Positions 4,353 through 64,000 of a stretch of 64,000 nucleotides of DNA are shown here, piece after piece. Made by a program: the position numbers and the translations under genes. The stretch's first letter is position 1; every line of letters begins with the position of its first letter. Source of the DNA: an uncultured Pseudomonadota bacterium (GTDB taxonomy: Bacteria; Babelota; Babeliae; Babelales; RVW-14). The stretch covers positions 19,393 to 83,392 of the forward strand of contig CAZMQG010000001.1 of the NCBI GenBank assembly GCA_964568625.1, read 5' to 3'. A model generated the notes under the pieces. The model was not told the DNA's origin. It made no database searches and worked only from the letters and a program-made list of their open reading frames with translations.

Positions 4353-5810
4353 CTAAAAATTCAATTTAATTTGCACGCTCAGGGTCCCACCAAACATGTC
4401 AGTTTTAAAAGTATGCTTTCCATAAAATGGATAGTCATATTCCAGAAAAATAGTTGGGCAAACTGATTTTAATTCAAGAGTATATCCACCAATAAAATGT
4501 AGTGCATAGTATTCCCAATCTTTAAGTTTTTGATCGGAATTAACAATATCATTAACCGAAACAACATTTGGCCATACATTGTTTGCAGGATAATATTGAT
4601 TAAGCTGTTGTTGAGAATAATTTTTTAATAAATTATCATCATGAATCGTAATAATAGTATCCTCCTGGCGCGTATAAGATGCTCCAATTTTTGCTATTAC
4701 TCCCTTAAACCCTAACTGAGCATATGCACCAACATCCCATTGAGCACCATAATCAACCTTGCCAAAACTTGGTTCAAGTAATATCCATCCATCTTGGTTT
4801 TTATCAGTTTTAACTCGTAAATCACGTTCTTGAGTAAAAAATACCAACCCACCGGCGTTGGCGCCAACACCAAGAAAATCAAAAACCTGAACATACAAAT
4901 TTATGCGTCCATCAATAGCCGTAGAATCCGCAGACCCAAGTGGAACCGCAAATGGCTTGGATAAATCAGTTTTACCTGATGTTGGAATAAGTACGCCAAT
5001 TTGAGCTTCAGCGCTTATCCTTTTAAAGATGGGAGATTGAGGATCCCCAGAACCATGCCAACCTGCAGATAAAAGAATGTCACCAACTCCGGACTTTTTG
5101 AAAGTATCTTGCCAATTGCTATTGAAAGTCATTGCAGCCAAAACATTATTCAGAGTGCCAGATTTTTCTTGCATAAAATCTTTAACATTTACAGTAGTCG
5201 GAGCCTTACTTTTCGTACCATCCCAAATATCTGCACCCGTTAAAGTATCGCTACCAAGATTATTATATGTAATCTTATCTATCTTCACATCCCGATATGG
5301 AATATACGCCTGAATAAAAAATCCCCAAAAAAGATCCTGCTTAAATGTAAAATCCCATTCGTCAATTTCAAAATGCCCACTATATTCAATTAAGCCATCG
5401 TTTGGGGTACTTTTTGTATAATTTGGAGGGAAAATAATCGTTTCTTTTGTTTTATCATACTTTCCCAAAACTGTAGGCGGAATGTAATTCGCACCACCCC
5501 AGTATCCAGTCATATCTTTTCCCAAAGAGTCTATTACAGTGTTTGGGCTATCTACATAGCATCCAATATTTGTAATATCCATATATCCATGCGCAGATAG
5601 CAATGGACGTCCATCATTATGTGTATCCCATGCCTTATGAGTACTTCCATGGCCATAACGTATGGATAGACCGGTTGTATATTTATCATACGCGTTATTA
5701 AAAGATTCTTGGAAAAATGGAGTCCGATAAAATTGTGGCAAATCAATTGCATTCAAAACACTCCCATAAACCAAGAAAAAAATGAGTCCATTTTTAAAAC
5801 TAAATCTCAT
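4353..5810 (-). CDS. outer-membrane beta-barrel protein (porin/MOMP-like), family unassigned
   Basis: Start trimmed to ATG 5810, which has an AAGGA SD 7 nt upstream, versus ORF-track start 5879. Signal peptide MRFSFKNGLIFFLVYGSVLNA. Alternating hydrophobic/aromatic strand pattern throughout. C-terminus ...GGTLSVQIKLNF ends in Phe, as in OM beta-barrels. Sits 45 nt upstream of the 1256-aa gene on the same strand. Confidence 0.6.
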   Translation of the reverse strand: MRFSFKNGLIFFLVYGSVLNAIDLPQFYRTPFFQESFNNAYDKYTTGLSIRYGHGSTHKAWDTHNDGRPLLSAHGYMDITNIGCYVDSPNTVIDSLGKDMTGYWGGANYIPPTVLGKYDKTKETIIFPPNYTKSTPNDGLIEYSGHFEIDEWDFTFKQDLFWGFFIQAYIPYRDVKIDKITYNNLGSDTLTGADIWDGTKSKAPTTVNVKDFMQEKSGTLNNVLAAMTFNSNWQDTFKKSGVGDILLSAGWHGSGDPQSPIFKRISAEAQIGVLIPTSGKTDLSKPFAVPLGSADSTAIDGRINLYVQVFDFLGVGANAGGLVFFTQERDLRVKTDKNQDGWILLEPSFGKVDYGAQWDVGAYAQLGFKGVIAKIGASYTRQEDTIITIHDDNLLKNYSQQQLNQYYPANNVWPNVVSVNDIVNSDQKLKDWEYYALHFIGGYTLELKSVCPTIFLEYDYPFYGKHTFKTDMFGGTLSVQIKLNF

Positions 5811-5994
5811 AAACATATCCTTACAACAACTAAAATTAATAATATTTTTTAGAAGCTGAATTATGGTAGTCAAACGCATTAATGAAATGCAAGAAAATGT
5901 ATGTTTAGTTAGAAAATGAGATTTTTAAGGCTAATTTTAATATTTATTTAGCCCCGATTTCTTAACTTTAAAATAATTTTGATCCTATCTATAA

Positions 5995-41485: not shown

Positions 41486-44400
41486 CTATTTACTTAATGC
41501 GGTCAAATCAGTAGTAACGTCATTAATCATTGTTGTAAACGTTTTTCCACTGGCAACTAATTTTGATGTTACAAGAGTAGCATTTGCATACCAAGCTTTT
41601 AATGCTTCTAGTTTTGTCTTATCTGTCTTCGGTCTTGCATTGTGCAAATTAGTTAAAGCAGTCCAGAAACTGGTCTGAACTGTTGTATAAACTAAAGTCG
41701 AATTTGCAGCTACATTTGTAGCCACACTTGTTACCAAATTTTGTAGCACTAACAATTGTGCATCATAAGTTGAAGTTGTAACTGTAAAACTCTTTAATAT
41801 ACTGTTCACCCTTGATATCTCAATTGCCAATAAGTCTGCATTAATATCACTAATCATTGTTGTAAAATTTTTATCAGCGGCAACTAGTTTTGATGCCGAG
41901 AGAGTTGCATACCAATTGGTTAGGGTTTCATACCAGGACTTTAAAGTAGTTAATTTTGCTTTATCTGTTTTAGGCCTTGCATTATGCAAACTTGTTAATG
42001 CAGCCCAAAAGTTTGCTTGTTCAACTGTGTAGTCAAGCGTCTGATTTGCTTGAAAAGCTGATGCTACACTTGTTACCAAATTGGGCAAAATAGGCAACTG
42101 AGAATCATAAGTTGAAGTTGTAACTGTAAAAGTTTTTAATATATTATCAACTCTTGCCATCTCAGCAGCTGCTATCAAATTTGCAAAATCTGAATTGATG
42201 TCATTAATCATACTAGTAAAATTTTTATTAGCAGCAACTAACTTCGATGCTACTAATGTCGCATACCAAGTATTTAATGTTGTATACCAAGAAATTAAGG
42301 TCGTTAATTTAGTCTTATCCGTTTTAGGCCTTGCATTATGTAAACTTGTTAATGCGGTCCAAAAACTAGTTTGAACAGGTGAGTAATCAAGAGACTGATT
42401 CGCCTGAAAATTCGCAGCTATACTTGTTACCAAATTTGGTAATATCGATAACTGAGAATCATACGTCGAAGCTGTCACAGTAAAATTCTTTAATATACCG
42501 TTAACCCTTGCCATTTCAGCCGCTTGCACTAAAGACTGATCTATTTTTGTAAAATCCGAATTAATATCATTAATCATACTAGTGAAATTTTTACCAGAGG
42601 CAACTAACTTTGATGCAACTAGTGTCGCATACCAGGTATTTAACGTTGTATACCAAGTTTTTAAGGTAGTTAGTTTAGTCTTATCTGATACCGGCCTTGC
42701 GTTATGTAAACTTGTTAATGCGGTCCAAAAACTCGCCTGCACCGGAGTATAGTCAAGAGCCTGATTTGCTTGAAAGTTTCCTGCAATGCTTGCCACCAAA
42801 TTTGGCAGTATTGATAACTGAGAATCATAAGTTGAAGCTGTAACTGTAAAATTATTCAATATATTACTTACTCTTGCCATCTCTGCAGATTGAGCCAAAG
42901 CCTGATCTATCTTTTTAAAATCTGAATCAATATCACTAATCATTGTTGTAAAACTTTTATCAGCAGCAACTAATTTTGATGTTTTAAGAGTTGAGTCTGT
43001 ATACCAACTTTTTAGTGCTGCTAATTTTACCTTATCATTACTAGGTCTAATCTTATGCAAATTAGTTAAAGCCAACCAAAAACTCGGTTGATACTGTGTA
43101 TAATCATACACTGAACTAGCAGGCACACTTTTTGCCAAGTCTTGCAATGCCAATAATTGAGAATCATAACTTGAACTAGCCAAAAGAACATTTGTATTTG
43201 CAGGTGTAAAACTACTTAATATATTATTAACCCTTGTCATTTCAGCAATTTTTACAGCAGACGCTTTATTTGCAACTTCTATATCTGTTCCAAGCTGCAT
43301 TAACCAATTTGCTAAATCCGAATTTTGCGCAAAATTCAAAAAAGATTTATTCATTGCATTATTTATCAAAACTTTTAAATCAGCCAAAGTCGAAGATGTT
43401 CTATTATTATAAAAATTTTTAATTGCAGTATAAATTGAGTTACTAGAACTTGGATAATCCTGTAAAAACGTCTGATTAAACATACCTGTAGAAACACCAA
43501 CAACATTTGCATTCAACAATGCTGGCGTTCCTGATTTTGTTTTATCATTTAATATAGCAGTCAAAGCTGATTTTACTTCATCCACTAGTCTGCCACTCCA
43601 ACTTTTAAGATCAGATTTTTGGGATGAAGTCAAAAAAGCTTTAGATTGAGCATTGTTTAACAATAGCTGCACATCTCCTAATGGATAAAGATTCCTGTTG
43701 TTATAAAAATTTTGAATTATCGTATAAATCGAACGACTTGAGCTTGGATAATTCTGTAAATAAGACTGATTAAAGCTTGAAATTAAATTTATACTCAAAG
43801 AATCAGTCGTACTTGAAGCATCAACAACATTTGCATTCAATAAAGCAGGAGTTCCAGATTTTGTAGAATCATCTAAAATTGCCTTTAAAGAAACTTTTAC
43901 ATCATTTTGCACCTGCATTAAACAATTTTTAATATCATCCTTCTGTGATGAGGTTAAAAATGCTTTATCTTGAGCATTTTTCAATAAAATTTGTAAATCC
44001 CCATATGAGGATGATGTCCTATTATTATAGAAATTTTTAATTGCCGTATAAATAGAACTTCCCAAACTTGGATAATCTTGTAAATATGCCTGATTAAAAA
44101 CATCGTTAGATACTGAAACAATATTCGCATCCAATAAGGCTGGAGTACCAGATTTTGTAACATCTCCAAGGATTGCCACCAAGGATGATTTAACAGCTTC
44201 CGTTACAGCACTCGTTTGCTGAGAAACAGCCTGCACAGTAGTAGATATCGTAGATGGAACAACAACCGGTACGGCAGAAGTCAGCCGTGGCAATTGAGTT
44301 TGGGTTGTCGCAGCAACAATTTGAGTTGCAACCGGTTGAGCAACAGCCTGTACCTGTGATTGCTGAGTTTGTGTTTTAGCCTGTGCCTGTAATTGAGCCT

Positions 44401-45220
44401 GCAACTGCTGTGCTTGTAACTGCTGAGCTTGTAATTGAGCTTGCAGTTGTTGAGCTTGTAATTGAGCTTGCAGTTGTTGTGATTGTAGCTGTGCTTGCGC
44501 TTTTAACTGTTGAGCTTGCAATTGCTGAGCCTGTAATTGAGACTGAAGTTGCTGCGTTTGTAACTGAGACTGAGCATCTTGCCCCACTGAAGAAGTTATA
44601 GGGGTAGTTAACGGAACCGTTGATGATACACGTGTAGCATAAGCATCTGATGATAACCCCGAAGTTGTTGTAAGTCCTCCAGTAGAAACAACACCTGATG
44701 TAGGCGTAGTACCTGAACCTGATGTAGACACCAAATCTGACGTCGATCCCAAAATGGATTGCCCTGGAAGACTAGATCCAGTAGCAGATGAAGTTGAATC
44801 CGATAATAAATCTAAAAGCAATTGGTCTTGTGCTTGCGCCAAAGGTAACTTATCTGATAAAGATCCCGATTGTAATGACAAGTCTTGCGGAATTCCACTT
44901 GTAGGCAAAGATATTCCCGACGCTTGAGATTCTTTAGAAACTCCAACATCACCAGATGGCTCCAATAATTCTGATGACAAATCTTGAATAGAACTATCTT
45001 GAAAAGGCTCACCTTGTATAGTTAATTTTTGATTAGAATTTGTTGATTCCCCTGAACCGGCAATATCCCCAGATTGTTTTAATAAATCTAACGATAAATC
45101 TTGGGAAAAAAAATTCTGATCAGTATTTGAAGAATATACAGACTGATTTGTCGCCAAGTACATTCCTGTAACCATAATAAAGACCAGTATCGTTGACATC
45201 TCTATTGAATGCCACTTCAT
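41486..45220 (-). CDS. 1244-aa repeat-built surface/secreted protein (orphan)
   Basis: N-terminal hydrophobic anchor STILVFIMVTGMYLA. Short QDLS..LL..SGD repeats, an S/T/G-rich linker, a Q-rich (QLQAQ)n tract, then 3 + 5 long tandem repeats (see repeat features). Confidence 0.8.
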   Translation of the reverse strand: MKWHSIEMSTILVFIMVTGMYLATNQSVYSSNTDQNFFSQDLSLDLLKQSGDIAGSGESTNSNQKLTIQGEPFQDSSIQDLSSELLEPSGDVGVSKESQASGISLPTSGIPQDLSLQSGSLSDKLPLAQAQDQLLLDLLSDSTSSATGSSLPGQSILGSTSDLVSTSGSGTTPTSGVVSTGGLTTTSGLSSDAYATRVSSTVPLTTPITSSVGQDAQSQLQTQQLQSQLQAQQLQAQQLKAQAQLQSQQLQAQLQAQQLQAQLQAQQLQAQQLQAQLQAQAKTQTQQSQVQAVAQPVATQIVAATTQTQLPRLTSAVPVVVPSTISTTVQAVSQQTSAVTEAVKSSLVAILGDVTKSGTPALLDANIVSVSNDVFNQAYLQDYPSLGSSIYTAIKNFYNNRTSSSYGDLQILLKNAQDKAFLTSSQKDDIKNCLMQVQNDVKVSLKAILDDSTKSGTPALLNANVVDASSTTDSLSINLISSFNQSYLQNYPSSSRSIYTIIQNFYNNRNLYPLGDVQLLLNNAQSKAFLTSSQKSDLKSWSGRLVDEVKSALTAILNDKTKSGTPALLNANVVGVSTGMFNQTFLQDYPSSSNSIYTAIKNFYNNRTSSTLADLKVLINNAMNKSFLNFAQNSDLANWLMQLGTDIEVANKASAVKIAEMTRVNNILSSFTPANTNVLLASSSYDSQLLALQDLAKSVPASSVYDYTQYQPSFWLALTNLHKIRPSNDKVKLAALKSWYTDSTLKTSKLVAADKSFTTMISDIDSDFKKIDQALAQSAEMARVSNILNNFTVTASTYDSQLSILPNLVASIAGNFQANQALDYTPVQASFWTALTSLHNARPVSDKTKLTTLKTWYTTLNTWYATLVASKLVASGKNFTSMINDINSDFTKIDQSLVQAAEMARVNGILKNFTVTASTYDSQLSILPNLVTSIAANFQANQSLDYSPVQTSFWTALTSLHNARPKTDKTKLTTLISWYTTLNTWYATLVASKLVAANKNFTSMINDINSDFANLIAAAEMARVDNILKTFTVTTSTYDSQLPILPNLVTSVASAFQANQTLDYTVEQANFWAALTSLHNARPKTDKAKLTTLKSWYETLTNWYATLSASKLVAADKNFTTMISDINADLLAIEISRVNSILKSFTVTTSTYDAQLLVLQNLVTSVATNVAANSTLVYTTVQTSFWTALTNLHNARPKTDKTKLEALKAWYANATLVTSKLVASGKTFTTMINDVTTDLTALSK
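41489..43246 (-). repeat. five in-frame tandem repeats of 112-122 codons (family B)
   Basis: Units start on the minus strand at 43246, 42886, 42520, 42166 and 41824 (anchor AEM(A/T)RV / IEISRV). Consensus AEMARVNxILKNFTVTASTYDSQLSILPNLVTSIAxNFQANQxLDYxPVQxSFWTALTSLHNARPKTDKTKLTTLKxWYTTLNTWYATLVASKLVAxxKNFTSMINDINSDF. The three middle copies are also highly similar at DNA level. Confidence 0.9.
43250..44200 (-). repeat. three in-frame tandem repeats of ~98-108 codons (family A)
   Basis: Anchor KSGTPALL(D/N)AN(I/V)V at about 44156, 43863 and 43538. Shared FNQ.YLQ(D/N)YPS...SIYT.I(K/Q)NFYNNR...L...L(K/N)NA..K(A/S)FL(T/N).(S/A)Q(K/N).D(I/L). Confidence 0.85.
44340..44590 (-). repeat. Gln-rich low-complexity tract incl. 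a perfect 27-nt tandem duplication (44425-44451 / 44452-44478)
   Basis: Encodes QSQLQTQQLQSQLQAQQLQAQQLKAQAQLQSQQLQAQLQAQQLQAQLQAQQLQAQQLQAQLQAQAKTQTQQSQ. The plus strand shows GAGCTTGTAATTGAGCTTGCAGTTGTT twice in a row. Confidence 0.9.
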
Positions 45221-45272: not shown

Positions 45273-46835
45273 TTATTTATCTAAAAAATGAAGTTTAATA
45301 CCAAATTGTTTTTTCGTAAAAAATGCAAACAACATAACAGCCGCACCTAATCCAAACACAATAAACCAATATCCAATTCCAATATTGAAAAAGCTAGACC
45401 AAGATGAGCCTTCCACCATCCATAATATTAGGAAATATCCAGTTAAAAAAAGTACAATCGAAATAGTAAGCTGAGCCAAATATCGAACTAAAAAATTAAA
45501 ATAATTCCCGTAATAAAATGTAAACCCATGCTTTTTATGCAAAAAGTAAAAACATAAAACTGTCATCATTATACCGGACAAACTGCAAGCTCCGGCAATT
45601 CCATATGCACCAAATAACAGAATACCAGACAAATCGCCCAAAAGATTCACCACGGCAGAAACTGCTGAAGATATTGTTGTTGAAGTGGTATCTTTCATAG
45701 CATAAAAAATGCTAAGTAATGACCTGTTCAAACAGAAAAAGAAAAGACCTATTAGATAAATTACCAAAATCCATGCCCCTTGAAATGCAAGAGAAGGATC
45801 TTTAACTTTTGTTAACATCACATTTTCAAATAGATGTTTAGAAATAAACATTAAAAAGAGTGATACGGGAATAATAACCCATGAAACAAATTTAGTAACC
45901 TCGAGAATATAAAAATTTAGGCGCTTTGGGGCATAAAGAACTACTCGCGAAAAATGCGATAACATAATACTTGAAAATGCCACAGCAAAAACACCTAATG
46001 GAATATTCATAAATCGACTACCAAAATAAAGTAGAGTCACTGAGCCCTTAGGTAAAAATGATGCAATTGCAAAACTTATAAATAAATTGAATTCAACAAT
46101 GCTAACGCCAAAAAGACATGGTAAAAATTTACCCAAAACACTCTTAAATAATTTTTTGACACTATCAGTCACATGGCCAAATGTGAATCCATATTTAAAA
46201 TAAAACAAAATATTCATCAATAACCAAAAAAAACCACCCACGATTATTCCAAAACAAACAACGTTAGCCGATGTTTGAAAATACAAAGCAACAAGTAATC
46301 CAGCTATATAAAACATATTCCATAAAGCTGGCCCAAATGCAGGAACAGCAAAACAATTTACTGCATTAAGCGCACCTGCAAATAATGTGCTGCTCGAAAC
46401 TAATAACAAAAATGGAAATAAAATTCGTAAAAAAGGAACTGCATAATTTATCTGCTCTTGTGAAAATCCGGGAGCAATCATTCTAATAACAAATTCTGTT
46501 TTAAAAAAAATAAATGCATACATTAAAAGAATTATGCCTTCAAAAAACAGAAATGATATTGTCATTAACCCGCTTGCTTCTTGTTTATTTTCGTCCTTAA
46601 CACTTTTTACAAATGCAGGAACAAATGAAGCACTCATTGCACCTTCTGCAAAAACATGCCGAAAAAAGTTTGGCAAACGAAAGGACATAATAAAAGCATC
46701 TGACATTGCCCCAACGCCAAAAAATCTGGCAATCAAAAATTCTCTAAATATTCCAAGAAATCGACTTATAAGTGTCATACTCCCTGCTTGGGCTGTTTTT
46801 TTTAAAATATCACGCTTATTCAGTGAAAGACTCAT
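45273..46835 (-). CDS. murJ: lipid II flippase MurJ/MviN
   Basis: GSMTLISRFLGIFREFLIARFFGVGAMSDAFIMSFRLPNFFRHVFAEGAMSASFVPAF is the canonical MurJ N-terminus. About 14 TM segments. Confidence 0.85.
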   Translation of the reverse strand: MSLSLNKRDILKKTAQAGSMTLISRFLGIFREFLIARFFGVGAMSDAFIMSFRLPNFFRHVFAEGAMSASFVPAFVKSVKDENKQEASGLMTISFLFFEGIILLMYAFIFFKTEFVIRMIAPGFSQEQINYAVPFLRILFPFLLLVSSSTLFAGALNAVNCFAVPAFGPALWNMFYIAGLLVALYFQTSANVVCFGIIVGGFFWLLMNILFYFKYGFTFGHVTDSVKKLFKSVLGKFLPCLFGVSIVEFNLFISFAIASFLPKGSVTLLYFGSRFMNIPLGVFAVAFSSIMLSHFSRVVLYAPKRLNFYILEVTKFVSWVIIPVSLFLMFISKHLFENVMLTKVKDPSLAFQGAWILVIYLIGLFFFCLNRSLLSIFYAMKDTTSTTISSAVSAVVNLLGDLSGILLFGAYGIAGACSLSGIMMTVLCFYFLHKKHGFTFYYGNYFNFLVRYLAQLTISIVLFLTGYFLILWMVEGSSWSSFFNIGIGYWFIVFGLGAAVMLFAFFTKKQFGIKLHFLDK

Positions 46836-46868: not shown

Positions 46869-47555
46869 TTATTTTACAAGTAACCCATCATGTAATGTAT
46901 ACACAACTTCCATCTTAGTATAAACATCAGGATCATGCGAACAGATTATTACACCCATTCCCCATTCCTCTTTTGCCCTTAAAATTAAATTAACAACATT
47001 TTTAGCATTATCAGAATCCAAATTTCCTGTTGGCTCATCTGCAAGCAAAAATGAAGGTTTATTAAAAATTGCTCTGGAAATTGATACCCTTTGCTGTTCT
47101 CCACCGGAAAGTTGCCCCGGATAACTGTTCTCTTTTCCAGATAAGCCCATATTTTGCAATAACTCAAATGCTCTAGCACGACATTTTGTATTATTTTCAC
47201 CTTTGACCAAACCAACCAACATAATATTCTCAAGTACTGTTAACTCTTTGATTAGGTAATGGAACTGAAACACAAACCCCATTGTTTTATTTAAAAATTT
47301 CTCTTTTTCCGATTGTTTTAGTTTATAAATATCTTTTCCATTAAAAGTTACAGTACCTTCGCTTGGTTCATCAAGTCCACCTAAAATGTGCATGAACGTA
47401 GACTTCCCGCTTCCAGAAACCCCCTTAATTGCATAAGCAGTTCCCTTACAAAACTCTACGGATACGCCCTTCAAAACATGACTAATTTTATCGGCTTCCC
47501 CAAAATCTTTGTAAATATTATTTGAAATCAATCGATCGGCAAATTGCCCAATCAT
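46869..47555 (-). CDS. ABC transporter ATP-binding protein, LolD/MacB/FtsE-like
   Basis: Start trimmed to ATG 47555 (TGGAGA SD; the ORF-track start is a TTG inside that SD). Walker A GVSGSGKST, signature LSGGEQQRVSISRA, Walker B FLLADEPTGNLD. No permease gene is adjacent. Confidence 0.8.
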   Translation of the reverse strand: MIGQFADRLISNNIYKDFGEADKISHVLKGVSVEFCKGTAYAIKGVSGSGKSTFMHILGGLDEPSEGTVTFNGKDIYKLKQSEKEKFLNKTMGFVFQFHYLIKELTVLENIMLVGLVKGENNTKCRARAFELLQNMGLSGKENSYPGQLSGGEQQRVSISRAIFNKPSFLLADEPTGNLDSDNAKNVVNLILRAKEEWGMGVIICSHDPDVYTKMEVVYTLHDGLLVK

Positions 47556-47731
47556 TTTATTCTCCAAAAAATAATTTCACTTTTTTTTAACTTCTTAATC
47601 ATTATTACCCCATTAAAATACGATATTCTTTTAAATATTACCAATTCTGTTGCATTATCCAAAGCAATTTCTTTAAAATTCAATTTAGAACAGGGGCAAA
47701 TTTAGGACATATCAAAGGGGGAGGGGGAGTA

Positions 47732-53595: not shown

Positions 53596-54369
53596 ATGAA
53601 AAATATAAGAATTTTATTCCTGGCTACATTGACTGCAGGGCTCACCATTACAAATACATTTGCAATGGATGCAAGAGCAGCTACAAGCCATACTGAAAGC
53701 TCCACAAGACAAGATCTACAAATCCAATCAAGCCTATCTGTACTGCCAGATGAATTAATAGTAAAAATTTTAGCAGATTCCATAGAAGACGACTTTATAA
53801 AATGCACAGATCAAAGTATGCTACTCAAAAAAATAAATATTGCTATTACGGAATTAAAACAATTAAGACTTGTAAATCACGAATTTGCAAATTTTTTAAC
53901 AAATGAAACAATCATCTATATCTTAAGAGTTGCAAATCTAGCCGCATATGCAAACCAAATTAATCCTGACACAGGAGAAGCCTTATTGCACATGGCCATA
54001 CGCAGAGGTAAGTATATGTTAGCAAAAATTTTAATCAAAACAGGAGCAGATGTTAACAAACAACTCATAACCCCAAGAGACCCCAAAATTACCCGACAAT
54101 TCCCTGTTGGAACAACTCCTCTTCATACTGCAATAAAGGCGGGTAATCTCAGCATCGTGGAATTATTGGTTCACTATGGTGCCAATATTACTGCAACAAT
54201 CACTAAATACGAGCAGATCTTTACCCCTTTGGATATAGCAAGAAATAATGGAGATGATAATATCATTCACATCCTTGAAAATGCTTATACAACAAAAGGC
54301 ATTGCTATCCCTGCTACCGATGAGATAGAAAATGACCCTGTTTTTATAAATGCACCTCAGCATAACTAA
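53596..54369 (+). CDS. F-box + ankyrin-repeat protein with signal peptide (AnkB-like eukaryote-mimic)
   Basis: AGGAGG SD. Signal peptide MKNIRILFLATLTAGLTITNTFA. F-box LSVLPDELIVKILADS...LKQLRLVNHEFANFL (53731..~53895). ANK repeats GEALLHMAIRRGKYMLAKILIKTGADVN, GTTPLHTAIKAGNLSIVELLVHYGANI, FTPLDIARNNGDDNIIHILENA. Confidence 0.8.
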   Translation: MKNIRILFLATLTAGLTITNTFAMDARAATSHTESSTRQDLQIQSSLSVLPDELIVKILADSIEDDFIKCTDQSMLLKKINIAITELKQLRLVNHEFANFLTNETIIYILRVANLAAYANQINPDTGEALLHMAIRRGKYMLAKILIKTGADVNKQLITPRDPKITRQFPVGTTPLHTAIKAGNLSIVELLVHYGANITATITKYEQIFTPLDIARNNGDDNIIHILENAYTTKGIAIPATDEIENDPVFINAPQHN

Positions 54370-55435: not shown

Positions 55436-55576
55436 CTTTTTGCAACATTCATATTATTCTGTTAGAATTTTGCTAGTATCTCAAACAAAAAATCGAAATT
55501 CAGTAAAATTATCGATTTTACTCTGGGATTGGTGAGGGGTTTTAGAAATTTAATTTTATTTTTTAAGAGGAATACA

Positions 55577-57406
55577 ATGAGTTTTAAGCAAAGGCTTGAT
55601 ATTCGAAATATTGCCATCATTGCTCACGTAGACCATGGCAAAACAACACTGGTTGACCAAATGTTAAAACAATCAGGCACAGTATCAAATATTAATATAC
55701 AAGAAAATGAACGCGTAATGGACTCCGGTGAACTCGAAAGAGAACGCGGAATCACCATTCTTGCAAAAAATACCTCAATTAGACTTCCAGAAGGTCAAAT
55801 TAATATAGTCGATACACCAGGTCACATGGATTTTGGTGGTGAAGTTGAAAGAACTCTTCAAATGGTTGAGGGTTTTTTACTTCTTGTAGACGCAGCCGAA
55901 GGACCACTCCCTGGTACACGTTTCGTTTTGCAAAAAGCCTTACAACTCAATTTGAAACCAATTGTTTTAATCAATAAAATTGACAGAAAAGATGCTGATA
56001 TTGCACAAACAGAAAGATTGGTCCACGATCTATTTTTAGATCTCGCAACAAGCGAAGATCAGCTTGATTTTCCAATGCTTTATGGTTCATCCAGACAAGG
56101 ATTTGCAAGTCTTGATCCCAACACTCCTCACGAAGGAACTCTTGAACCGCTATTTCAAGCAATAATGAAACACATTCCGGTACCAACACAAAAGACAGAC
56201 GATCTTGCCATTCTCATTACAAACATAGACCATTCTGAATATCTTGGAAGAATTGCAATTGGTCGTGTATTCAGCGGAACAATCCATATTTCAAAACAAT
56301 TAATTGCTTGTAAAGATGATTATGTTGGACAACCAACAAAGGTTCTCAAAATTTATCAATTTCAAGGCGTCAAAAGAGTTGAAGTCGAATCAGCTCAGTT
56401 TGGCGACATTATAGCATTAGCAGGAGTTGAGGAAGAGATAACTATCGGTACAACTTTATGTGATGTTGGCAAGCCACTTCCTCATTCATACGTTGCTGTT
56501 GATGAACCAACCCTTTCCATTAACTTTTCAGTCAATGACTCCCCATTTGGAGGCAAAGAGGGCACATATCTAACCTCACGTCACATTCGAGACAGATTAT
56601 ATAAAGAATTAAAAACAAATTTAGCACTTCGAGTAGAAGAAACCGAATCCGCCGATACTTATAAAGTTTCCGGACGAGGACAACTCCATCTTTCAATTCT
56701 TGTTGAGCAAATGCGCCGCGAAGGATTTGAATTACAACTTTCTGCACCAGAAGTTATATATAAAATAGTTGATGGCAAAAAGTGCGAACCTTTTGAATAT
56801 TTAATTATCGACGTTAGTGACGAATACCAAGGCATTATAATGGAAACACTTGGAAAACGTAGAGCACTTTTGAAAAATATGATTCATCACGGAGCCAACA
56901 AAATTCGACTTGAATTCAAAGTCCCTGCTCGCGGATTAATTGGGTTCAGAAGTCAATTTTTAACTGATACACGTGGCACAGGAATGCTCAGCCACAATTT
57001 CTTGGGTTATGAAGAATACGCCGGACCAATTCCCGGACGTACAAAAGGGGCAATGATTTCCATGGAATCCGGAACCATTACAGGATATGCACTTGATACG
57101 CTACAAGAACGTGGAGTATTGATCACAAAACCAACTGATGAAGTTTATGAGGGCATGATTGTTGGAGAACACAGCCGAGAAAATGACTTGGATGTTAACC
57201 CAACTAAACGCAAAAAACTCACAAACATGAGAGCATCAGGTAGCGATGATGCAATAAAACTTGCACCACCACGTACCATGACAATTGAAACAGCTCTTGA
57301 CTGGATTAACGACGATGAATTAATCGAAGTTACACCAAAATCAATTCGTTTACGTAAAAAATATCTCAAATCAACTGATCGCAAACGAAAAGAAAGAGCA
57401 GACTAA
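55577..57406 (+). CDS. typA: translational GTPase TypA/BipA
   Basis: Start trimmed to MSFKQRLDIRNIAIIAHVDHGKTTLVD (AAGAGG SD). Also DSGELERERGITI, NIVDTPGHMDFGGEVER, NKIDR. C-terminal BipA-specific domain. Confidence 0.9.
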   Translation: MSFKQRLDIRNIAIIAHVDHGKTTLVDQMLKQSGTVSNINIQENERVMDSGELERERGITILAKNTSIRLPEGQINIVDTPGHMDFGGEVERTLQMVEGFLLLVDAAEGPLPGTRFVLQKALQLNLKPIVLINKIDRKDADIAQTERLVHDLFLDLATSEDQLDFPMLYGSSRQGFASLDPNTPHEGTLEPLFQAIMKHIPVPTQKTDDLAILITNIDHSEYLGRIAIGRVFSGTIHISKQLIACKDDYVGQPTKVLKIYQFQGVKRVEVESAQFGDIIALAGVEEEITIGTTLCDVGKPLPHSYVAVDEPTLSINFSVNDSPFGGKEGTYLTSRHIRDRLYKELKTNLALRVEETESADTYKVSGRGQLHLSILVEQMRREGFELQLSAPEVIYKIVDGKKCEPFEYLIIDVSDEYQGIIMETLGKRRALLKNMIHHGANKIRLEFKVPARGLIGFRSQFLTDTRGTGMLSHNFLGYEEYAGPIPGRTKGAMISMESGTITGYALDTLQERGVLITKPTDEVYEGMIVGEHSRENDLDVNPTKRKKLTNMRASGSDDAIKLAPPRTMTIETALDWINDDELIEVTPKSIRLRKKYLKSTDRKRKERAD

Positions 57407-57441: not shown

Positions 57442-57480
57442 AAAAGCCGCTTGTAATAAAACAAGCGGCTTTTTCGTTTT
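57442..57480 (+). terminator. rho-independent terminator after typA
   Basis: AAAAGCCGCTTGT (57442-57454) pairs with ACAAGCGGCTTTT (57461-57473), 13 bp perfect, followed by TCGTTTT. Confidence 0.8.
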
Positions 57481-57613
57481 CATAAAAAATAAAATCTGAA
57501 TAAAAATGATTTAATGTGTTTTCTAAAACCATAAAATCATTTAAAATTATCAAATGCACATCCGTCGTTAGACCAAAAAGTTTATTATTCACAAAATCAA
57601 TAAAAGGAGATTT

Positions 57614-60600
57614 ATGAGAAAAAACTTGATTGCGATAAGTATCCTGATGTTTTTAACTCAAATACTAATCGCAAAAAATGGTAGCATCGAACATAATCTA
57701 GTTCGCTCAATCTCAACAGAATCACTAGGAGTTGATGTAAACACATCAGCATATTCCGGTCCAGACCAATTTTATATTGTAACTAATGCAAATGAAGACA
57801 AATCACTTTCTCGCATTGCAATGGCAAGGGGAGACGACGGAAATTGGACTGCAGTATTTATGCCTATGGCCCCAGCCACCGGCGATGTAACCATTAACTT
57901 GCAAAATGAGCAAGACAGTCCATTAAATGCAAAAGACATTACTAAACTTGTAATTGGATCAGATACATTTGCATATAAACGCCCCGTCGTTGGCCTAGTT
58001 GAAGGTGAAGACCCTGATCAAAAAGTACTTTTATTTCAAGTAACTGATACAAACGAAGGCAAGATTATTTTAAAAACATCAAGCATGGATAACTTAACTG
58101 AATATGCTTTAAAAGATACCAGCACATATAACGCCAAAGGACTTCACGCACTTGCTGCAACACAAAATTTAGAAAAAATTTTAGGAACTCCTCTGATCTT
58201 TGCACTTGTTTCTGACAGTGCAAATTTAAACGAAGCAACGCCTGAAAATATTGGTATTGTTCCTGTAATAGTTAAAGCATCTTATTCCGGGCTAAACCCA
58301 CTTGATGCAACAAATTTTGATAAATCCGGACAAAATAATAAAGCAATATCCATAATAAGTGCGCTAAAAATAACAACCAATCCAACGTTTTTGGAAAATT
58401 CCACCGTAGATATGTTTTGGGATGACACGCTACAAAGATTATTCATCGCTACATCAAAAATACAAACAGGCGCAGGAAACAGTGATGGAGCCATAGCTCT
58501 TCTGGTTGGAAATATTAAAAGCGAAACTACAAAAAAAGGAACAATCCAAAGCTTACAAATACAAAAATGCGCTAATATTTTAGATGCAAATTGGCCGTCG
58601 GGAAACGCCAACAAAAATTGGATTGTCGGGTATAAAAACGATACAACAACAACAGATACAAAAGAGCAAATTATAAATCTTCACAAAGTGCGCACAATGC
58701 ATACAAGCACAGGCAAAGATTACGTTATCCTAAATGGAGAGGTTGCGAAGGGAACAGACAGTACTCTTACCAGCAGCACAGTATGCGAAGTGTATGCGCT
58801 ACCGGTGATGCCTAGCACCAGCACAGACGCCGGAAAATTGGCAACAGTAAATGATGATGGAACGTTTGCCGTAATAACCCAGGGAAGTGAGCTACTCAGA
58901 AATACAGATACTCAAGCCGTAGTTGGCGTAAATCCTCAATATATTGTTCACACTAATACTGATGCTGCATTTGATAACGCCAAAATAATGGATATGCAAA
59001 TTTCAGGTGATACCGTCTACATTTCAGTAACCGGATCAAGAAGTAATGCCGGCGAAGATACTGCAGGCGAAGCCGGAATATTCGCATCAACTGCTATTTT
59101 TAATGAGAAAAGAGTAATTCGTGCTTGGACTCCATGGCAAAGAGTTATGGGATATACGGATAAAGTTTTTGGACTTGGTTTTGATATAGGTTCAAATAAT
59201 TTTTGGTACATTGGACCTGATCAACAAACAGGTAAAATAACAATTTGGAGCTCAGGAGATACAAGTGAAACTGGAATTCACGAAGGCAGCCCACTCTGCA
59301 CCGCTCTAAGTAGTTTTTTTAAGAAAGATGAGCTTGGTGTTGTAAATCTATTCAATTTTGACGATGAAACTCCCGGTTTTAAAACATGGAAACCTGAATC
59401 TTCATATCCGGCTTTTTCAATGATGGTTGCACTCGGGCTTGGAAAAGTTGCTTTAATTGAAACAGGAAAAAGATCAAACACAACTAATAATAAATCACCG
59501 TTTGAACCAACAAAAAAATTTGAAGCCAATCTTGTAGGAAACTCAACATCCCCCGCAACAGAAACAACCAACGTTTTTGTTTTTAATGATACGGTAACTC
59601 AAGCATTAGGATTTATAACATCAGCTGAAGTTGCTCGCATTAAAACCTCACTGCTTAATGCTACAAAACTAAAACAAAATACATATACCGAAGGTGGTTG
59701 GTTATTTATTGGAGGACAAAATGGAGTTGCAGTCCTACGCAAAAGTAATGGCGCAGGATGGAACACCACATCAGGACTTAATAAATTAAGCAACACTGAT
59801 TTTCCCGGCAAGGGATACTCTTTTCTAAAGCTAACACCTCCATCTGAATATAGCTTTTCAAACATTCGCAAACTAATCTCTGATGGAAAGTATCTTTATA
59901 TTTTGACCCGATCGGATTTATACAGGCTAGAAATGAACGCCAATGATTTTACAGACTATGTAACAATAAATTCCACGCGAATAAAGCTACTTGCAAGCAT
60001 AAATAACACATTTCAAAATGACAGTAACACCCAAGTCATGAACAAATATATTGATGAATTATTTGATATCGTTTTAGTTGACAATACTGACAATGCAAAA
60101 AAACTTGCTATCGCAACGACTCAAGGCGTTTGGGTATCAAACACAATAGAAGACGAATTTGCAGTAGACGATATTAAATGGAACAAAAACATCAGTAGAA
60201 CAGGCAGAGAAGAAATATATCTCGGCCCATCATTAAAATTTGATTTTTTACCGGTCAAACGAGGCGGCACAACCACAGATTCTAACGGGATAAACACTAT
60301 CGACGGCAACCTGTACGTAACTGCAATTGATTATAAATTTGCAGAGTTGGTCGTTTGTCGGTTTAATGTGCAAAACGGAGCAGTGACAATGTTCGACGAG
60401 CCTTATATTGCTGGAGGGGTTTATGGATACTCGGTTCCATACTTCTATAGATTAGCAGATTTAGGCGAAATATTTAGGGGAACCCAATTCGGACCGCTCG
60501 ATCACGTTGGACGAAAAGGTCAACTCTCTGAAAGTATAGGCGTAACTCCCGATCCAAGTAGTTTTTTACCTACAACAGAAGATGATCTAACATATTATAA

Positions 60601-60718
60601 AGCCATTGATCTTGACATGGATCCTCAAGCGGCTTTACATCTTTTTTCAATTATACAAAATACAGCATCCGGAGCTCTTTATATCCCCGGAGAATTTAAC
60701 GTTTTTGTAAATGAATAA
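57614..60718 (+). CDS. 1034-aa secreted orphan protein, paralog 1 of a tandem pair (beta-rich, propeller-like motifs)
   Basis: AAGGAG SD. Signal peptide MRKNLIAISILMFLTQILIA. Shares collinear motif blocks with the next gene (VRTMHTSTG, AWTPWQRVMG..KVFG, FSMMVA.G..K.ALI.T, NVFVF, GWLF.GG.NGVAVL.K..G.GW, FPG.GYSF.KLTP, SFSN.RKL, C-terminal PG(E/D)(F/W)...VNE). Confidence 0.8.
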   Translation: MRKNLIAISILMFLTQILIAKNGSIEHNLVRSISTESLGVDVNTSAYSGPDQFYIVTNANEDKSLSRIAMARGDDGNWTAVFMPMAPATGDVTINLQNEQDSPLNAKDITKLVIGSDTFAYKRPVVGLVEGEDPDQKVLLFQVTDTNEGKIILKTSSMDNLTEYALKDTSTYNAKGLHALAATQNLEKILGTPLIFALVSDSANLNEATPENIGIVPVIVKASYSGLNPLDATNFDKSGQNNKAISIISALKITTNPTFLENSTVDMFWDDTLQRLFIATSKIQTGAGNSDGAIALLVGNIKSETTKKGTIQSLQIQKCANILDANWPSGNANKNWIVGYKNDTTTTDTKEQIINLHKVRTMHTSTGKDYVILNGEVAKGTDSTLTSSTVCEVYALPVMPSTSTDAGKLATVNDDGTFAVITQGSELLRNTDTQAVVGVNPQYIVHTNTDAAFDNAKIMDMQISGDTVYISVTGSRSNAGEDTAGEAGIFASTAIFNEKRVIRAWTPWQRVMGYTDKVFGLGFDIGSNNFWYIGPDQQTGKITIWSSGDTSETGIHEGSPLCTALSSFFKKDELGVVNLFNFDDETPGFKTWKPESSYPAFSMMVALGLGKVALIETGKRSNTTNNKSPFEPTKKFEANLVGNSTSPATETTNVFVFNDTVTQALGFITSAEVARIKTSLLNATKLKQNTYTEGGWLFIGGQNGVAVLRKSNGAGWNTTSGLNKLSNTDFPGKGYSFLKLTPPSEYSFSNIRKLISDGKYLYILTRSDLYRLEMNANDFTDYVTINSTRIKLLASINNTFQNDSNTQVMNKYIDELFDIVLVDNTDNAKKLAIATTQGVWVSNTIEDEFAVDDIKWNKNISRTGREEIYLGPSLKFDFLPVKRGGTTTDSNGINTIDGNLYVTAIDYKFAELVVCRFNVQNGAVTMFDEPYIAGGVYGYSVPYFYRLADLGEIFRGTQFGPLDHVGRKGQLSESIGVTPDPSSFLPTTEDDLTYYKAIDLDMDPQAALHLFSIIQNTASGALYIPGEFNVFVNE

Positions 60719-60740
60719 ACAAACAATAAAAAGGAAACTC

Positions 60741-63700
60741 ATGAAAAATAAGAAATCGCCATTTTATTTGCCAATATTTTTAACAACAATTGCATGCTGG
60801 AATGCACAACTTTTTTCGTCTGTAGAAAATTTCGTACCTAACAGTGCAGTGGTACAAACATCACCAAGTAGACTGACATTTGAAAAAACCGTTTTTGACA
60901 ATTCAAATCTTAATTTTTTCTTAGGCGCAGCAAAGGATGCAACATATACCGCCACTACGGCAAAGGCATATGCCGTTACACGTGCACACGAGACATCAAT
61001 TTTTGGAATTACTCCGGAAAAAATTTGGGCTCCTAAAGAAGATGGTAGTGGATCCGAAGAAGTTGAAAACAAACTTTATGGAGCAAGGATCTTAAATCTC
61101 GGTTTATTCAATAATAGCTATCCAATTGTATCTTATCGACAAGACTCTGGCTATCTAGATGATTCTAATATTCTTTATTTAATAAGCTCATACCTTGATG
61201 GGAAAACAAATATAGCTACTGAAGCGGCATTACAAGATTCAACACCTGGCGATACAAAACAAATTAAGGCGTTAACAGGATCTAACACTTATGTTTTTGC
61301 CGCAGTATCTGCATCAGGAAAAGACTGGAACGATCCATCCGATGACGGAGATGCACGAGGAATAGCCGTTGTAAAACCTACCTTAAATGTAAAAATTCCA
61401 ACAATAAAGCAACTCGCCGCCGAAGATTTAAGCAATAGTGAACCTACGGAAACAAAGGCAAAAAAGGTAGATGTAAAAGTAACAGCTAATCCTATAGTTG
61501 TTAGCTTTACTGAGGCCGCAGCTCCAAGCGCTATTACAAAAGCTTATATCGGTTCTGATGTTGACATGTACTGGGACAGTGAACTAGGAAGACTCTTCGT
61601 TGGATTATCTGAAGTACACCGTAATGATCAAAACAAAGAAGGCGGTTGTTTTAGCATTTTGGTAGGAAGAATCGAAAAAGAGAACATCGGTACGTCATCT
61701 GAAAAAGATCATACTTTAACTTTCTCTTCAATTGTATCTTCACCAACAAAAGCCAAGCTTTATAACGACACTACGTACAAAAATTCAAATAAATTTATGG
61801 TTGGATTTTATTACGATACTACAGGAACAGATGATGTAACAATTACAGCAAAAAAAGTACGTGTAATGCATACAAGCACCGGATTTTCTTATTTGATTGC
61901 AAATTGCAATCTATCCGGCGATAGTGAATATAATAAAGTTTTTGCTCTTCCAATTTTGGGAAACAAAAGACCTGATGGCACAACAATTACCGATAGAGGA
62001 ATAATTGGAACTTTATCTAAAATAGATGACTCTACTCATCTTCCAACATTTGATGCCATTCCAACAGAAGCAAAGTATATGCCACAGTTTGACAAAGATA
62101 ATCCAACTAACCCAAGCAAAACAACTATCGGCCTTGTCGTTGGACAAGCAGAAAAAGACACTGGACGATTAAAAGACCTATTTGTATCCGGTGATTCTGT
62201 TTTTATTTGTTTAAGTGATGATGGTTCTACTCAAAACTCCGGAATATTCGAAAGTACTGCTCTGTTCAACTCTGACGGAATTATTATTGCATGGACACCT
62301 TGGCAAAGGGTCATGGGGGATGTACAAAAAGTTTTTGGCGGCGGTGTAGATGTATTCAATAATTTTTGCTTCCTTACCTCACAAGACACCGCAAAAACAG
62401 ATGCAAATACCATAAGAACATCGATATGGGGAACCACGGAAACAGCTAACAAATCCGAAACAATAGATAAAGAGAATGACAAACCTGTTTGGACCAACGA
62501 CACAAGCAGAAACTTATCGGCTCTTCTTTCAAGCATTTTTCCACAAGAACAGTGTGGCGTACTGCAAACCATAAATTTTGATGAATATACTCCAGGGTTT
62601 AAACAACAGAAGTTTTCGATGATGGTTGCAGTTGGATATGATAAAATTGCACTAATTCAGACGCTCGATCCAATAACACAAAATCCAATAAAAACATTTA
62701 CAACTGATGGAGCAACCCCAAATGTTTTTGTATTTCAAAATGATCCGGTACTCAAAGAAATCGCGCCACTTTGCTTTGCAGAAGTTGCAAAAAATACTGA
62801 TGCCGATTCCGGCTGGCTTTTTGTCGGAGGATACAACGGCGTCGCTGTTTTATGCAAGGCAGATGGATCCGGGTGGGATTCAAGTGGGGACGGACTTATA
62901 AATCTTGATACAGCAGCTTTTCCAGGAAACGGATATTCTTTCAAAAAATTAACTCCAAGCACCCCAAATGCCGTTAGCTTTAGCAATGTTAGAAAGCTTG
63001 CAAGCATGGCAAGCTCTGATGCAAAAAAATTATTTATACAGACAAAAGATAACCTGTACTCAATAGTTCCATCAGCCGCAGAATTCAAAACGGCAACAGT
63101 AACTGCAACACCAATGCTTACAGATCTTCCAGAAACTTTAAAATTCACAGATTTTTTAATAATTCCAAATGCTGACCCAGCGGATGATGGTACACTTCCT
63201 ACTTCAAATAATTTTAAGTTTATTTTTGGCTCGACGTATGGATTATTAACAGGCATATACAACTCAGCTACCGCAAAGGTAACCTTGAGTGGGCAAGGCA
63301 GCGCAACAAGTGATCCTGTTTTACACCTCAACTACATATCAAAAACAAAAGGGCTCAACAGCGTAACAGGAAATTTGTACGCCTTATCGGCAAACTATCT
63401 GACAAACTCCGGTAAAATTTACAGATATTATGTTAATGGAGCAGAGAGTTCTGCTGCTAATGCATGCAAGCCAATTTCTGTCGATGCAAACCCATTCATC
63501 GATCTTCACAATTTCCGCGGTAATTTTATAACAGACGGAGCGTTTGGGTTTAGCATGATAGCAAAAGGCCCTTCAAATAATTTCTTGACTGATCTTTATG
63601 AAATCGCACAAACTCAAACAGAACACGGATCGATTGATGAGTTACTTGAATTGAATGACACAAACTGGTATATAGGAGTAATAACTCGTAACACAGCCTC

Positions 63701-63749
63701 CGGATCGTGGTTAATCCCAGGAGATTGGGGTATAAAAGTTAACGAGTAA
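60741..63749 (+). CDS. 1002-aa secreted orphan protein, paralog 2 of the tandem pair
   Basis: Start trimmed to ATG 60741 (AAGGA SD): MKNKKSPFYLPIFLTTIACWNAQLFS. Motif blocks as listed for 57614..60718. Confidence 0.8.
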   Translation: MKNKKSPFYLPIFLTTIACWNAQLFSSVENFVPNSAVVQTSPSRLTFEKTVFDNSNLNFFLGAAKDATYTATTAKAYAVTRAHETSIFGITPEKIWAPKEDGSGSEEVENKLYGARILNLGLFNNSYPIVSYRQDSGYLDDSNILYLISSYLDGKTNIATEAALQDSTPGDTKQIKALTGSNTYVFAAVSASGKDWNDPSDDGDARGIAVVKPTLNVKIPTIKQLAAEDLSNSEPTETKAKKVDVKVTANPIVVSFTEAAAPSAITKAYIGSDVDMYWDSELGRLFVGLSEVHRNDQNKEGGCFSILVGRIEKENIGTSSEKDHTLTFSSIVSSPTKAKLYNDTTYKNSNKFMVGFYYDTTGTDDVTITAKKVRVMHTSTGFSYLIANCNLSGDSEYNKVFALPILGNKRPDGTTITDRGIIGTLSKIDDSTHLPTFDAIPTEAKYMPQFDKDNPTNPSKTTIGLVVGQAEKDTGRLKDLFVSGDSVFICLSDDGSTQNSGIFESTALFNSDGIIIAWTPWQRVMGDVQKVFGGGVDVFNNFCFLTSQDTAKTDANTIRTSIWGTTETANKSETIDKENDKPVWTNDTSRNLSALLSSIFPQEQCGVLQTINFDEYTPGFKQQKFSMMVAVGYDKIALIQTLDPITQNPIKTFTTDGATPNVFVFQNDPVLKEIAPLCFAEVAKNTDADSGWLFVGGYNGVAVLCKADGSGWDSSGDGLINLDTAAFPGNGYSFKKLTPSTPNAVSFSNVRKLASMASSDAKKLFIQTKDNLYSIVPSAAEFKTATVTATPMLTDLPETLKFTDFLIIPNADPADDGTLPTSNNFKFIFGSTYGLLTGIYNSATAKVTLSGQGSATSDPVLHLNYISKTKGLNSVTGNLYALSANYLTNSGKIYRYYVNGAESSAANACKPISVDANPFIDLHNFRGNFITDGAFGFSMIAKGPSNNFLTDLYEIAQTQTEHGSIDELLELNDTNWYIGVITRNTASGSWLIPGDWGIKVNE

Positions 63750-63790: not shown

Positions 63791-64000
63791 ATGAAATTAA
63801 AAAAAATACTGCAAGGCATACTGGCTTCATACATGATAAGCTCTTCAGTTCTTTGCGTTTTTGCACCATCAAACACTTTTCCACCGTATGACCCAAACGT
63901 AAGACTCCCAAAATGTCCAAACATGCGCATTCACTTGGGCGCAACCGCAGAGTATGGACAAAGTAACAGCGCACGTGATTGTGGCGGCGACAAACATAAT
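63791..64000 (+). CDS. signal-peptide protein, N-terminal 70 codons (runs off the right edge); possibly an OMP related to 4353..5810
   Basis: Not in the ORF track. GAAGGGA SD, then ATG 63791: MKLKKILQGILASYMISSSVLCVFAPSNTFPPYDPNVRLPKCPNMRIHLGATAEYGQSNSARDCGGDKHN. The stretch L-G-A-T-A-E-YG-Q-S-N-S-A-R-D loosely parallels L-S-I-R-YG-H-G-S-T-H-K-A-W-D of the OMP at 4353..5810. Confidence 0.5.
   Translation, partial: MKLKKILQGILASYMISSSVLCVFAPSNTFPPYDPNVRLPKCPNMRIHLGATAEYGQSNSARDCGGDKHN

Follow-up and report, generated by a model that had tools for sequence, protein, structure and literature searches.

FapF, the barrel of the Pseudomonas Fap system, is described as a 12-stranded barrel, similar to those of autotransporters, through which polypeptides are translocated, and its N-terminal periplasmic trimerising coiled coil, ~40 amino acids (aa) long, is needed for secretion (PMC5557850). 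In this system, Sec-exported paralogs (FapB and FapC) and a dedicated plugged barrel are encoded in one operon. A similar combination is found in a 64,000-nucleotide (nt) stretch of contig CAZMQG010000001.1 from assembly GCA_964568625.1 (hereafter the window), where two tandem genes, named A and B, code for paralogs of about 1000 aa with predicted Sec signal peptides and are followed by a gene, named C, that codes for a putative outer-membrane beta-barrel (Table 1). The comparison of this locus with its relatives firmly establishes that A and B belong to a large, unannotated family of Sec-exported propeller proteins (the A/B family), whose genes are coupled to that of a dedicated outer-membrane barrel with a transport-type fold. 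The window is AT-rich (GC content 30-39%), and its closest public relatives are metagenome-assembled genomes (MAGs) labelled Candidatus Babeliales. Babeliales, or Dependentiae, are widespread obligate intracellular parasites of protists, and their surface biology is almost uncharacterised. They have no lipopolysaccharide (LPS) synthesis genes and a degenerate outer membrane (PMC4776705, PMC6561590), and they are extreme auxotrophs relying on host metabolites (PMC6561590). Since the LPS genes are missing, proteins must dominate the Babeliales surface.

By its logic, the A-B-C module comes closest to FapF with its substrates and to type V secretion. The module has no sequence relationship with the Fap system, its operon contains no counterparts of FapA, FapD and FapE, and the Fap cargo is a disordered amyloid repeat protein, whereas the putative A/B cargo is a folded propeller of 1000 aa. 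Type V secretion, including the chlamydial Pmp adhesins, follows a scheme comparable to that of the module: the N-terminal passenger varies while the C-terminal part is conserved, the outer-membrane barrel is small, and the genome of an obligate intracellular bacterium encodes several paralogs; moreover, the type V autotransporter barrels EstA, BrkA and EspP are among the structural matches of C. However, A/B and C are encoded by separate genes, and the cargo is propeller-like rather than a beta-helix. Specifically, Pfam detects no Autotransporter domain of type Va in A, B or 37 relatives, the barrel being a separate gene, and no TPS, POTRA or ShlB domain of type Vb in A, B or C; C matches barrels of 12-14 strands and not Omp85. 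Similarly, A/B have no Pfam or NCBIfam match to the 80-100-aa C-terminal domain of type IX secretion system cargo (Por_Secre_tail, TIGR04183), and C has no Pfam match to the DUF560 or TPR domains of Slam/type XI secretion. Slam cargo carries a C-terminal barrel domain of 8 strands; AF2 (AlphaFold2) predicts propeller-like strands for the C-terminal region of A.

Linkage of A/B-family genes to a barrel gene

The linkage was mapped with hidden Markov models (HMMs) of the A/B and C families, both built here, over all loci fetched for comparison, which carry L-numbers (L001, L005, L011 and so on; L001 is the contig identical to the window). A/B-family genes almost always adjoin a C-family gene on the same strand, with a gap that is usually 0-60 nt. 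The order of the genes varies and includes AB-C (L009, L010, L012, L013, L014, L018, L020, L021, L028), C-AB (L017, L022, L025), C-AB-C-AB (L026), A-B-C (the clade of the window and L030) and C-A-B (L011, L019). The spacing between A/B and C is wider at L015 (~0.9 kb) and at L029, where small genes are inserted; only L023 and L027 have no C gene within the available sequence, and L016 and L024 end too near the A/B gene to judge. Because the adjacency outlasts rearrangement and divergence to ~25% identity, these gene maps indicate that A/B and C are a functional pair. It could be argued that the genes are functionally unrelated neighbours whose adjacency was inherited by chance, as many of the loci come from one order and some common synteny is expected among them; the retention of the linkage through every one of these gene orders, through changes of context and down to such low identity makes this highly improbable. 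A preliminary description of the window, made from its letters, had proposed to check the distribution of the A-B pair and its synteny with the downstream gene, and this check shows that the A/B-C linkage recurs throughout Babeliales.

The complete C product, read from the identical contig (L001:9653-10936), has 427 aa. Its homologs number well above 100, with identities of 34-92%; those few that carry a lineage name are labelled Babeliales, except for one labelled 'Epsilonproteobacteria'. C ends with GFNF, and a terminal Phe, the classic last residue of outer-membrane barrels, is present in 117 of 120 C homologs. The AF2 model of C (predicted local distance difference test, pLDDT, 88.8) is a beta-barrel in which DSSP counts 12-14 strands. 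In Foldseek searches, the best E-values are obtained with FapF (E 2e-12, TMt 0.63-0.73), while the best global fold match is the COG4313/Phenol_MetA_deg channel Pput2725 (PDB 4rl8; TMt 0.77-0.80), of a class of 12-stranded barrels with an N-terminal plug, than which C is ~150 aa longer; FadL, TodX and CymD, and the above-mentioned autotransporter barrels, match more weakly. The C of the window has no Pfam match at threshold, PF13557 (Phenol_MetA_deg) included; among its homologs, weak matches occur to PF13557 in 4 of 56 (best E 0.006) and to OMP_b-brl in some. The model thus assigns C, as a probably plugged outer-membrane beta-barrel, to the FapF/COG4313/FadL structural class. COG4313 and FadL channels are not known to be paired with a giant secreted partner gene. 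The gene downstream of B, which had been described as OMP-like, is therefore an outer-membrane barrel by model and a conserved partner of A/B.

Other genes are associated with the two families. In L029, the A/B-family gene is separated from its C partner by a GIY-YIG endonuclease gene and a small open reading frame (ORF) (L029:9227-9926), which look like a mobile element that splits the module. In L012, a conserved gene of ~410-440 aa with no Pfam match starts 18 nt after C (L012:12066-13385); its homologs are ORFs in L009, L014 and L020, it is absent from the A-B-C operon of the window, and it may be a further component of single-module operons. Elsewhere in the window lies a distant member of the C family (4353..5879, - strand; 508 aa, C-family HMM E 7e-34, ending ...IKLNF), and 45 nt downstream of it is a gene for a 1256-aa protein (537..4307, - strand) that has a signal-peptide-like N-terminus and no Pfam match and lies outside the A/B family. 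Large secreted proteins of other kinds may therefore also be partners of C-type barrels.

Two ancient subfamilies of exported propeller-like proteins

A and B align collinearly from residue ~160 through the last residue, with 29% identity over ~870 aligned residues (BLASTP, E 7e-77), a similarity far beyond chance that confirms them as full-length paralogs. An identity of about one third outside the conserved blocks had been estimated by eye, and the collinear blocks listed at that time are exactly the most conserved segments of the family in 169 diverse homologs. The orthologs of A (49-87% identity) and those of B (47-78%) share contigs, and L006 carries a match to A at 89% identity. A scores higher on an HMM of the A group than on that of the B group, and B does the opposite. 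The two groups also differ in their endings, ...PGEFG.xVNE for the A type and ...PGDWG.RVNE for the B type: all 35 cluster representatives with an EF-type ending score higher on the A-group HMM, and 75 of the 77 with a DW-type ending score higher on the B-group HMM. The tandem of an A-type gene followed by a B-type gene is present in the clade of the window, L030, L011 and L019, that is, in at least four lineages with ~30% identity between them, and B-type proteins are also found alone with C. It follows that the duplication long predates this genome and that the A-then-B order has been maintained. The sequences therefore point to A and B as two ancient subfamilies, and the maintained order suggests that they act together. 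The duplication, which had been proposed to be old with both copies kept, is older than proposed. Separately, the A-type gene of L019 is split into two overlapping ORFs of 1364 aa and 562 aa (L019:4260-9933), either by a frameshift, which would make it a possible pseudogene, or by an assembly error.

A, B and C receive zero Pfam or NCBIfam family assignments. Likewise, a phmmer search of A against PDB sequences, profile searches of the A/B and C families against PDB sequences, and Pfam on all 37 aligned A/B relatives return no match, and the literature on Dependentiae/Babeliales and outer-membrane or propeller proteins yielded no description of either family. Hence, for A/B and C no family model, solved structure or paper was found, as the first reading of the sequence, which recognised no characterised family, had anticipated. 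Word-indexed searches retrieve ~20 relatives each for A and B, of which the few named ones are all labelled Babeliales, while an exhaustive search with a 37-sequence HMM of the A/B family retrieves 1154 representatives of 50%-identity clusters (925 at E <= 1e-30). Most of them have 900-1100 aa and the longest has 3185 aa; in the long relatives, the family region is always at the extreme C-terminus and the N-terminus is variable. Nine long relatives (1264-3185 aa) were checked for adhesin-type domains: WD40 propellers occur in one, in the N-terminal extension of a 3185-aa relative, and the others have no recognisable domain. When one genome for each GTDB species was scanned with a single peptide pattern, an approach that undercounts, 22 loci with the A/B family were found. 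The titles that name a lineage read Babeliales, Dependentiae or TM6, and seven are labelled Pseudomonadota or Proteobacteria, labels that we suspect to be wrong; the family is apparently restricted to Babeliales. As L015, L016 and L027 belong to one MAG, several modules can occur per genome.

The predicted export route is shared by most of the family. A hydrophobic, signal-peptide-like N-terminus is present in 143 of 168 members, while a lipobox-like site is present in 3 of 168, in line with export of A/B via Sec signal peptides as soluble proteins and not as lipoproteins. For B, a lipobox-like site (LTTIAC) was considered and its assignment as a lipoprotein was rejected, the site not being conserved in the orthologs. 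A and B also diverge faster than their neighbours: between the window and L005, identity is 47-54% for A/B, 65% for C, 75% for PBP1A and 86% for TypA.

Regarding the fold, the AF2 model of A, computed from the 37-sequence alignment (pLDDT 84, predicted template modelling score 0.88), is almost wholly beta, with ~60 strands. Foldseek matches it to multi-propeller arrays in the PDB at E ~1e-10, including the periplasmic domains of BT4663 and BT4673, DDB1, CPSF160, SF3b130 and Utp4, with template modelling scores (TM-scores) of 0.13-0.23 and 7-11% identity. A thus resembles these proteins in its all-beta, blade-level fold and differs from them in overall superposition as well as in sequence, since Pfam detects no WD40, PQQ, Kelch or Reg_prop repeats in A, B or 37 relatives. 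The preliminary suggestion of beta-propeller-like domains is borne out by the model at the level of blades; the match is local and generic, and no specific family or function follows from it. The top-ranked 15-column window of the family alignment (3.09 bits in 169 diverse homologs) corresponds to GWLFIGGQNGVAVL of A, which is modelled as a blade hairpin.

The shared C-terminus

The identical C-terminal motif of A and B (GALYIPGEFNVFVNE and GSWLIPGDWGIKVNE) had been proposed as a sorting or anchoring signal. In the 169 homologs, the C-terminal block is the fourth most conserved of the A/B family; 91 members end with VNE and 122 with E, and the family profile has N at the penultimate position in 92% and E, Q or D at the last position in 97%. 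Moreover, the motif (...PG[DE][WF]G.RVNE-COOH) is always terminal, even in relatives of 1800-3185 aa. These features would fit a dedicated signal that is read by an export machinery. However, the C-terminal pattern G-a-W-x-V-P-G-D-W-G-V-R-V-N repeats, column by column, the most conserved internal hairpin pattern G-W-L-F-V-G-G-x-N-G-V-A-V-L, and AF2 models both as beta-hairpins. The C-terminal hairpin is confidently placed (pLDDT ~87) despite the ~90 poorly defined residues that precede it, which suggests that it packs into the fold. In addition, the most divergent subfamily (L022, L025, L026) ends in a GxNGVVAL-type blade motif and retains its C partner, and the motif carries no hydrophobic helix or other feature of known C-terminal sorting signals. 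A dedicated signal is therefore rather unlikely, and the models are most simply read as showing a structural hairpin, part of a blade, by which the last propeller is closed, with a possible second role in docking to C.

Possible roles of the module

The >1100 diverse clusters of the propeller family, the pairing of its members almost always with their own barrel and the frequent proximity of wall- and membrane-biogenesis genes make the A/B-C module a strong candidate for a core envelope or host-contact apparatus, and it probably builds part of the Babeliales cell surface or envelope. Tentatively, and with a confidence that falls somewhat short of probable, we favour a role of the barrel in exporting A/B or anchoring them at the outer membrane to give a surface complex, on account of the fold class of the barrel, the architecture of variable N-terminus and conserved C-terminus, the several modules per genome and the faster divergence of A/B. 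Specifically, A-type and B-type proteins would be made with Sec signal peptides, each folding into arrays of propeller blades; after Sec export, they would encounter C at the outer membrane, and C would either export them to the cell surface or hold them there, in the manner of an autotransporter or FapF barrel but as a polypeptide of its own. The two proteins would then act as a hetero-complex on the surface of the LPS-less bacterium, and the hairpin ending NE-COOH would chiefly close the last propeller and might also dock on C. For the module, we infer physical interaction, surface location and formation of A/B heteromers. If the barrel does export or anchor the propellers, this would be a new arrangement among outer-membrane secretion systems. 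The more specific proposal, in which an undescribed, Babeliales-specific "split" export-and-anchoring system of the autotransporter/FapF class delivers propellers of 1000-3000 aa through a separate plugged barrel and heteromers of A-type and B-type proteins form the main host-contact layer, is doubtful.

Several observations weigh against export or anchoring by C. C has no equivalent of the FapF coiled coil, as DSSP assigns no long helix from the signal peptide to the first strand, and no peptidase like the C39-like protease FapD is present among the Pfam matches of the neighbouring genes. The match of C to COG4313 and FadL channels equals or exceeds that to FapF, and such channels take up small hydrophobic molecules and do not export proteins. 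With a C-terminal motif that looks structural, no export signal is identified for A/B, and the low TM-scores of A leave its resemblance to known propellers generic. Lastly, neighbours such as PBP1A, MurJ and TamB fit a periplasmic role equally well.

In that case, the module would be a periplasmic envelope scaffold, in which A/B are tethered to the outer membrane by C and link it to the wall-synthesis machinery or regulate that machinery, in a manner comparable to LpoA/LpoB or TolB-Pal, to which they are unrelated. In the clade of the window, the gene order is rpsF-rpsR-typA-A-B-C-PBP1A, the PBP1A-family assignment of the gene after C being confirmed by NCBIfam, and pairs of A-type and B-type genes lie near PBP1A also in the distant L011 and L019. 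Single modules of a B-type gene and C directly follow genes for a LolD-like ATPase and MurJ in L012, L013, L014 and L020, with gaps of ~20-70 nt; L028 has the order AB-C-TamB, and in L029 a gene with a weak Amidase_3 match lies just upstream of the module. Beta-propellers are, furthermore, common periplasmic partners of outer-membrane components, as in TolB and BamB. The envelope neighbour nevertheless changes with the lineage and many modules have none within the available flanks, which links the module to envelope biogenesis in general and not to one enzyme, and part of the synteny may simply reflect the common descent of the genomes. Housekeeping wall regulators do not usually diverge fast, carry N-terminal extensions to 3000 aa or occur in several copies in one genome, and a plugged barrel of a channel class would be odd as a mere anchor. 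A periplasmic scaffold is unlikely, though a serious contender. A role in nutrient or lipid uptake is, in our estimate, less likely still: C would be a channel of the FadL/COG4313 type for hydrophobic host molecules, and A/B would be exported capture or lid proteins, similar to SusD on SusC. The global fold match of C to a COG4313 channel and its similarity to FadL, TodX and CymD fit this role, as do the weak Phenol_MetA_deg and OMP_b-brl matches of some C homologs, the use of tandem propellers that locally match A (BT4663, BT4673) as ligand-sensing periplasmic domains, and the dependence of these extreme auxotrophs on host metabolites (PMC6561590). Conversely, Pfam-based annotation revealed in A/B neither a ligand-binding site nor a known binding domain, and the route of A/B across the outer membrane would still need explaining if they act outside. 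Known FadL and COG4313 channels, in addition, work without a partner of 1000 aa. Whichever role the module has, thousands of genes now listed as 'hypothetical' could be annotated with the HMMs of the A/B and C families or by the adjacency rule.

Gene layout and neighbouring genes

The tandem arrangement of A and B previously reported, with products of 1034 and 1002 aa, is confirmed, except that the gap between the two genes is 22 nt (60719..60740) and not 23; the gap between B and C is 41 nt. A mechanical ORF list places the start of B at ATG 60711, overlapping the 3' end of A. An AAGGA Shine-Dalgarno sequence, inside the A-B gap as previously noted, lies just before ATG 60741, which is also the start in public gene calls and matches the N-termini of the orthologs (MKNKKS...); B therefore almost certainly starts at this codon. 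The intrinsic terminator that had been placed after typA is real, while the promoter region that A had been supposed to possess is not supported by the promoter scan, which gives no promoter-like match at threshold between this terminator and A; promoter-like sites in the region are fewer than the shuffled expectation. On the + strand, the terminator scan detects nothing terminator-like inside A-B or in the gap up to C; the three genes are thus probably co-transcribed.

Table 1. Features of the A-B-C locus, with coordinates given for the window.
Feature	Coordinates	Strand	Remarks
Intrinsic terminator of typA	57442..57473	+	13-bp stem with 6 GC pairs, followed by a run of T; delimits the A-B-C transcription unit on its upstream side
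Shine-Dalgarno sequence of A, AAGGAG	57604..57609	+	4 nt before ATG 57614; read in the sequence
Gene A, predicted A-type secreted multi-beta-propeller protein	57614..60718	+	1034 aa; ends ...PGEFNVFVNE; identical protein in a public collection
Predicted Sec signal peptide of A, MRKNLIAISILMFLTQILIA	57614..57673	+	no lipobox; N-terminal helix of low pLDDT in the AF2 model
Most conserved family motif in A, GWLFIGGQNGVAVL	59696..59737	+	residues 695-708; modelled blade hairpin, strands 695-701 and 704-709
C-terminal hairpin of A, GALYIPGEFNVFVNE	60671..60715	+	residues 1020-1034; modelled strands 1022-1026 and 1029-1033, pLDDT ~87
Shine-Dalgarno sequence of B, AAGGA	60731..60735	+	inside the A-B gap; read in the sequence
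Gene B, predicted B-type secreted paralog	60741..63749	+	1002 aa; ends ...PGDWGIKVNE
C-terminal hairpin of B, GSWLIPGDWGIKVNE	63702..63746	+	residues 988-1002
Start of gene C, predicted outer-membrane beta-barrel partner	63791..64000	+	first 70 of 427 codons; continues past the end of the window

Upstream of the locus, the listed ORF of typA (55529..57406, + strand) starts with TTG and has 625 aa, while public calls of the identical region have 609 aa; translation probably begins at an ATG further downstream (MSFKQRLD...). Another region of the window carries, on the - strand, genes for a LolD-like ABC ATPase (46869..47567) and for MurJ (45273..46835) and, downstream of them, a gene for a 1244-aa protein (41486..45220). 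The N-terminus of this protein includes a hydrophobic segment; the sequence also contains low-complexity stretches rich in S, T and Q, a long run of (QLQAQ)n and tandem repeats of ~110 aa, and its sole Pfam match is short (DUF5848). This gene occupies the post-murJ slot in which L012, L013, L014 and L020 carry a B-type gene and C. Genes for WD40-type beta-propeller proteins are present near the modules: in L011, one is found between PBP1A and the B-type gene (L011:14345-15727), and another is located 6 kb downstream in the contig of the window itself (L001:16763-18148, - strand). Lastly, a 257-aa product (53596..54369, + strand) has a signal-peptide-like N-terminus, an F-box-like motif (LPDELIVKILA) and ankyrin repeats recognised by eye, and the syntenic genes in L004 have Ank Pfam matches; F-box and ankyrin proteins are a eukaryote-like effector type that is typical of amoeba-associated bacteria.

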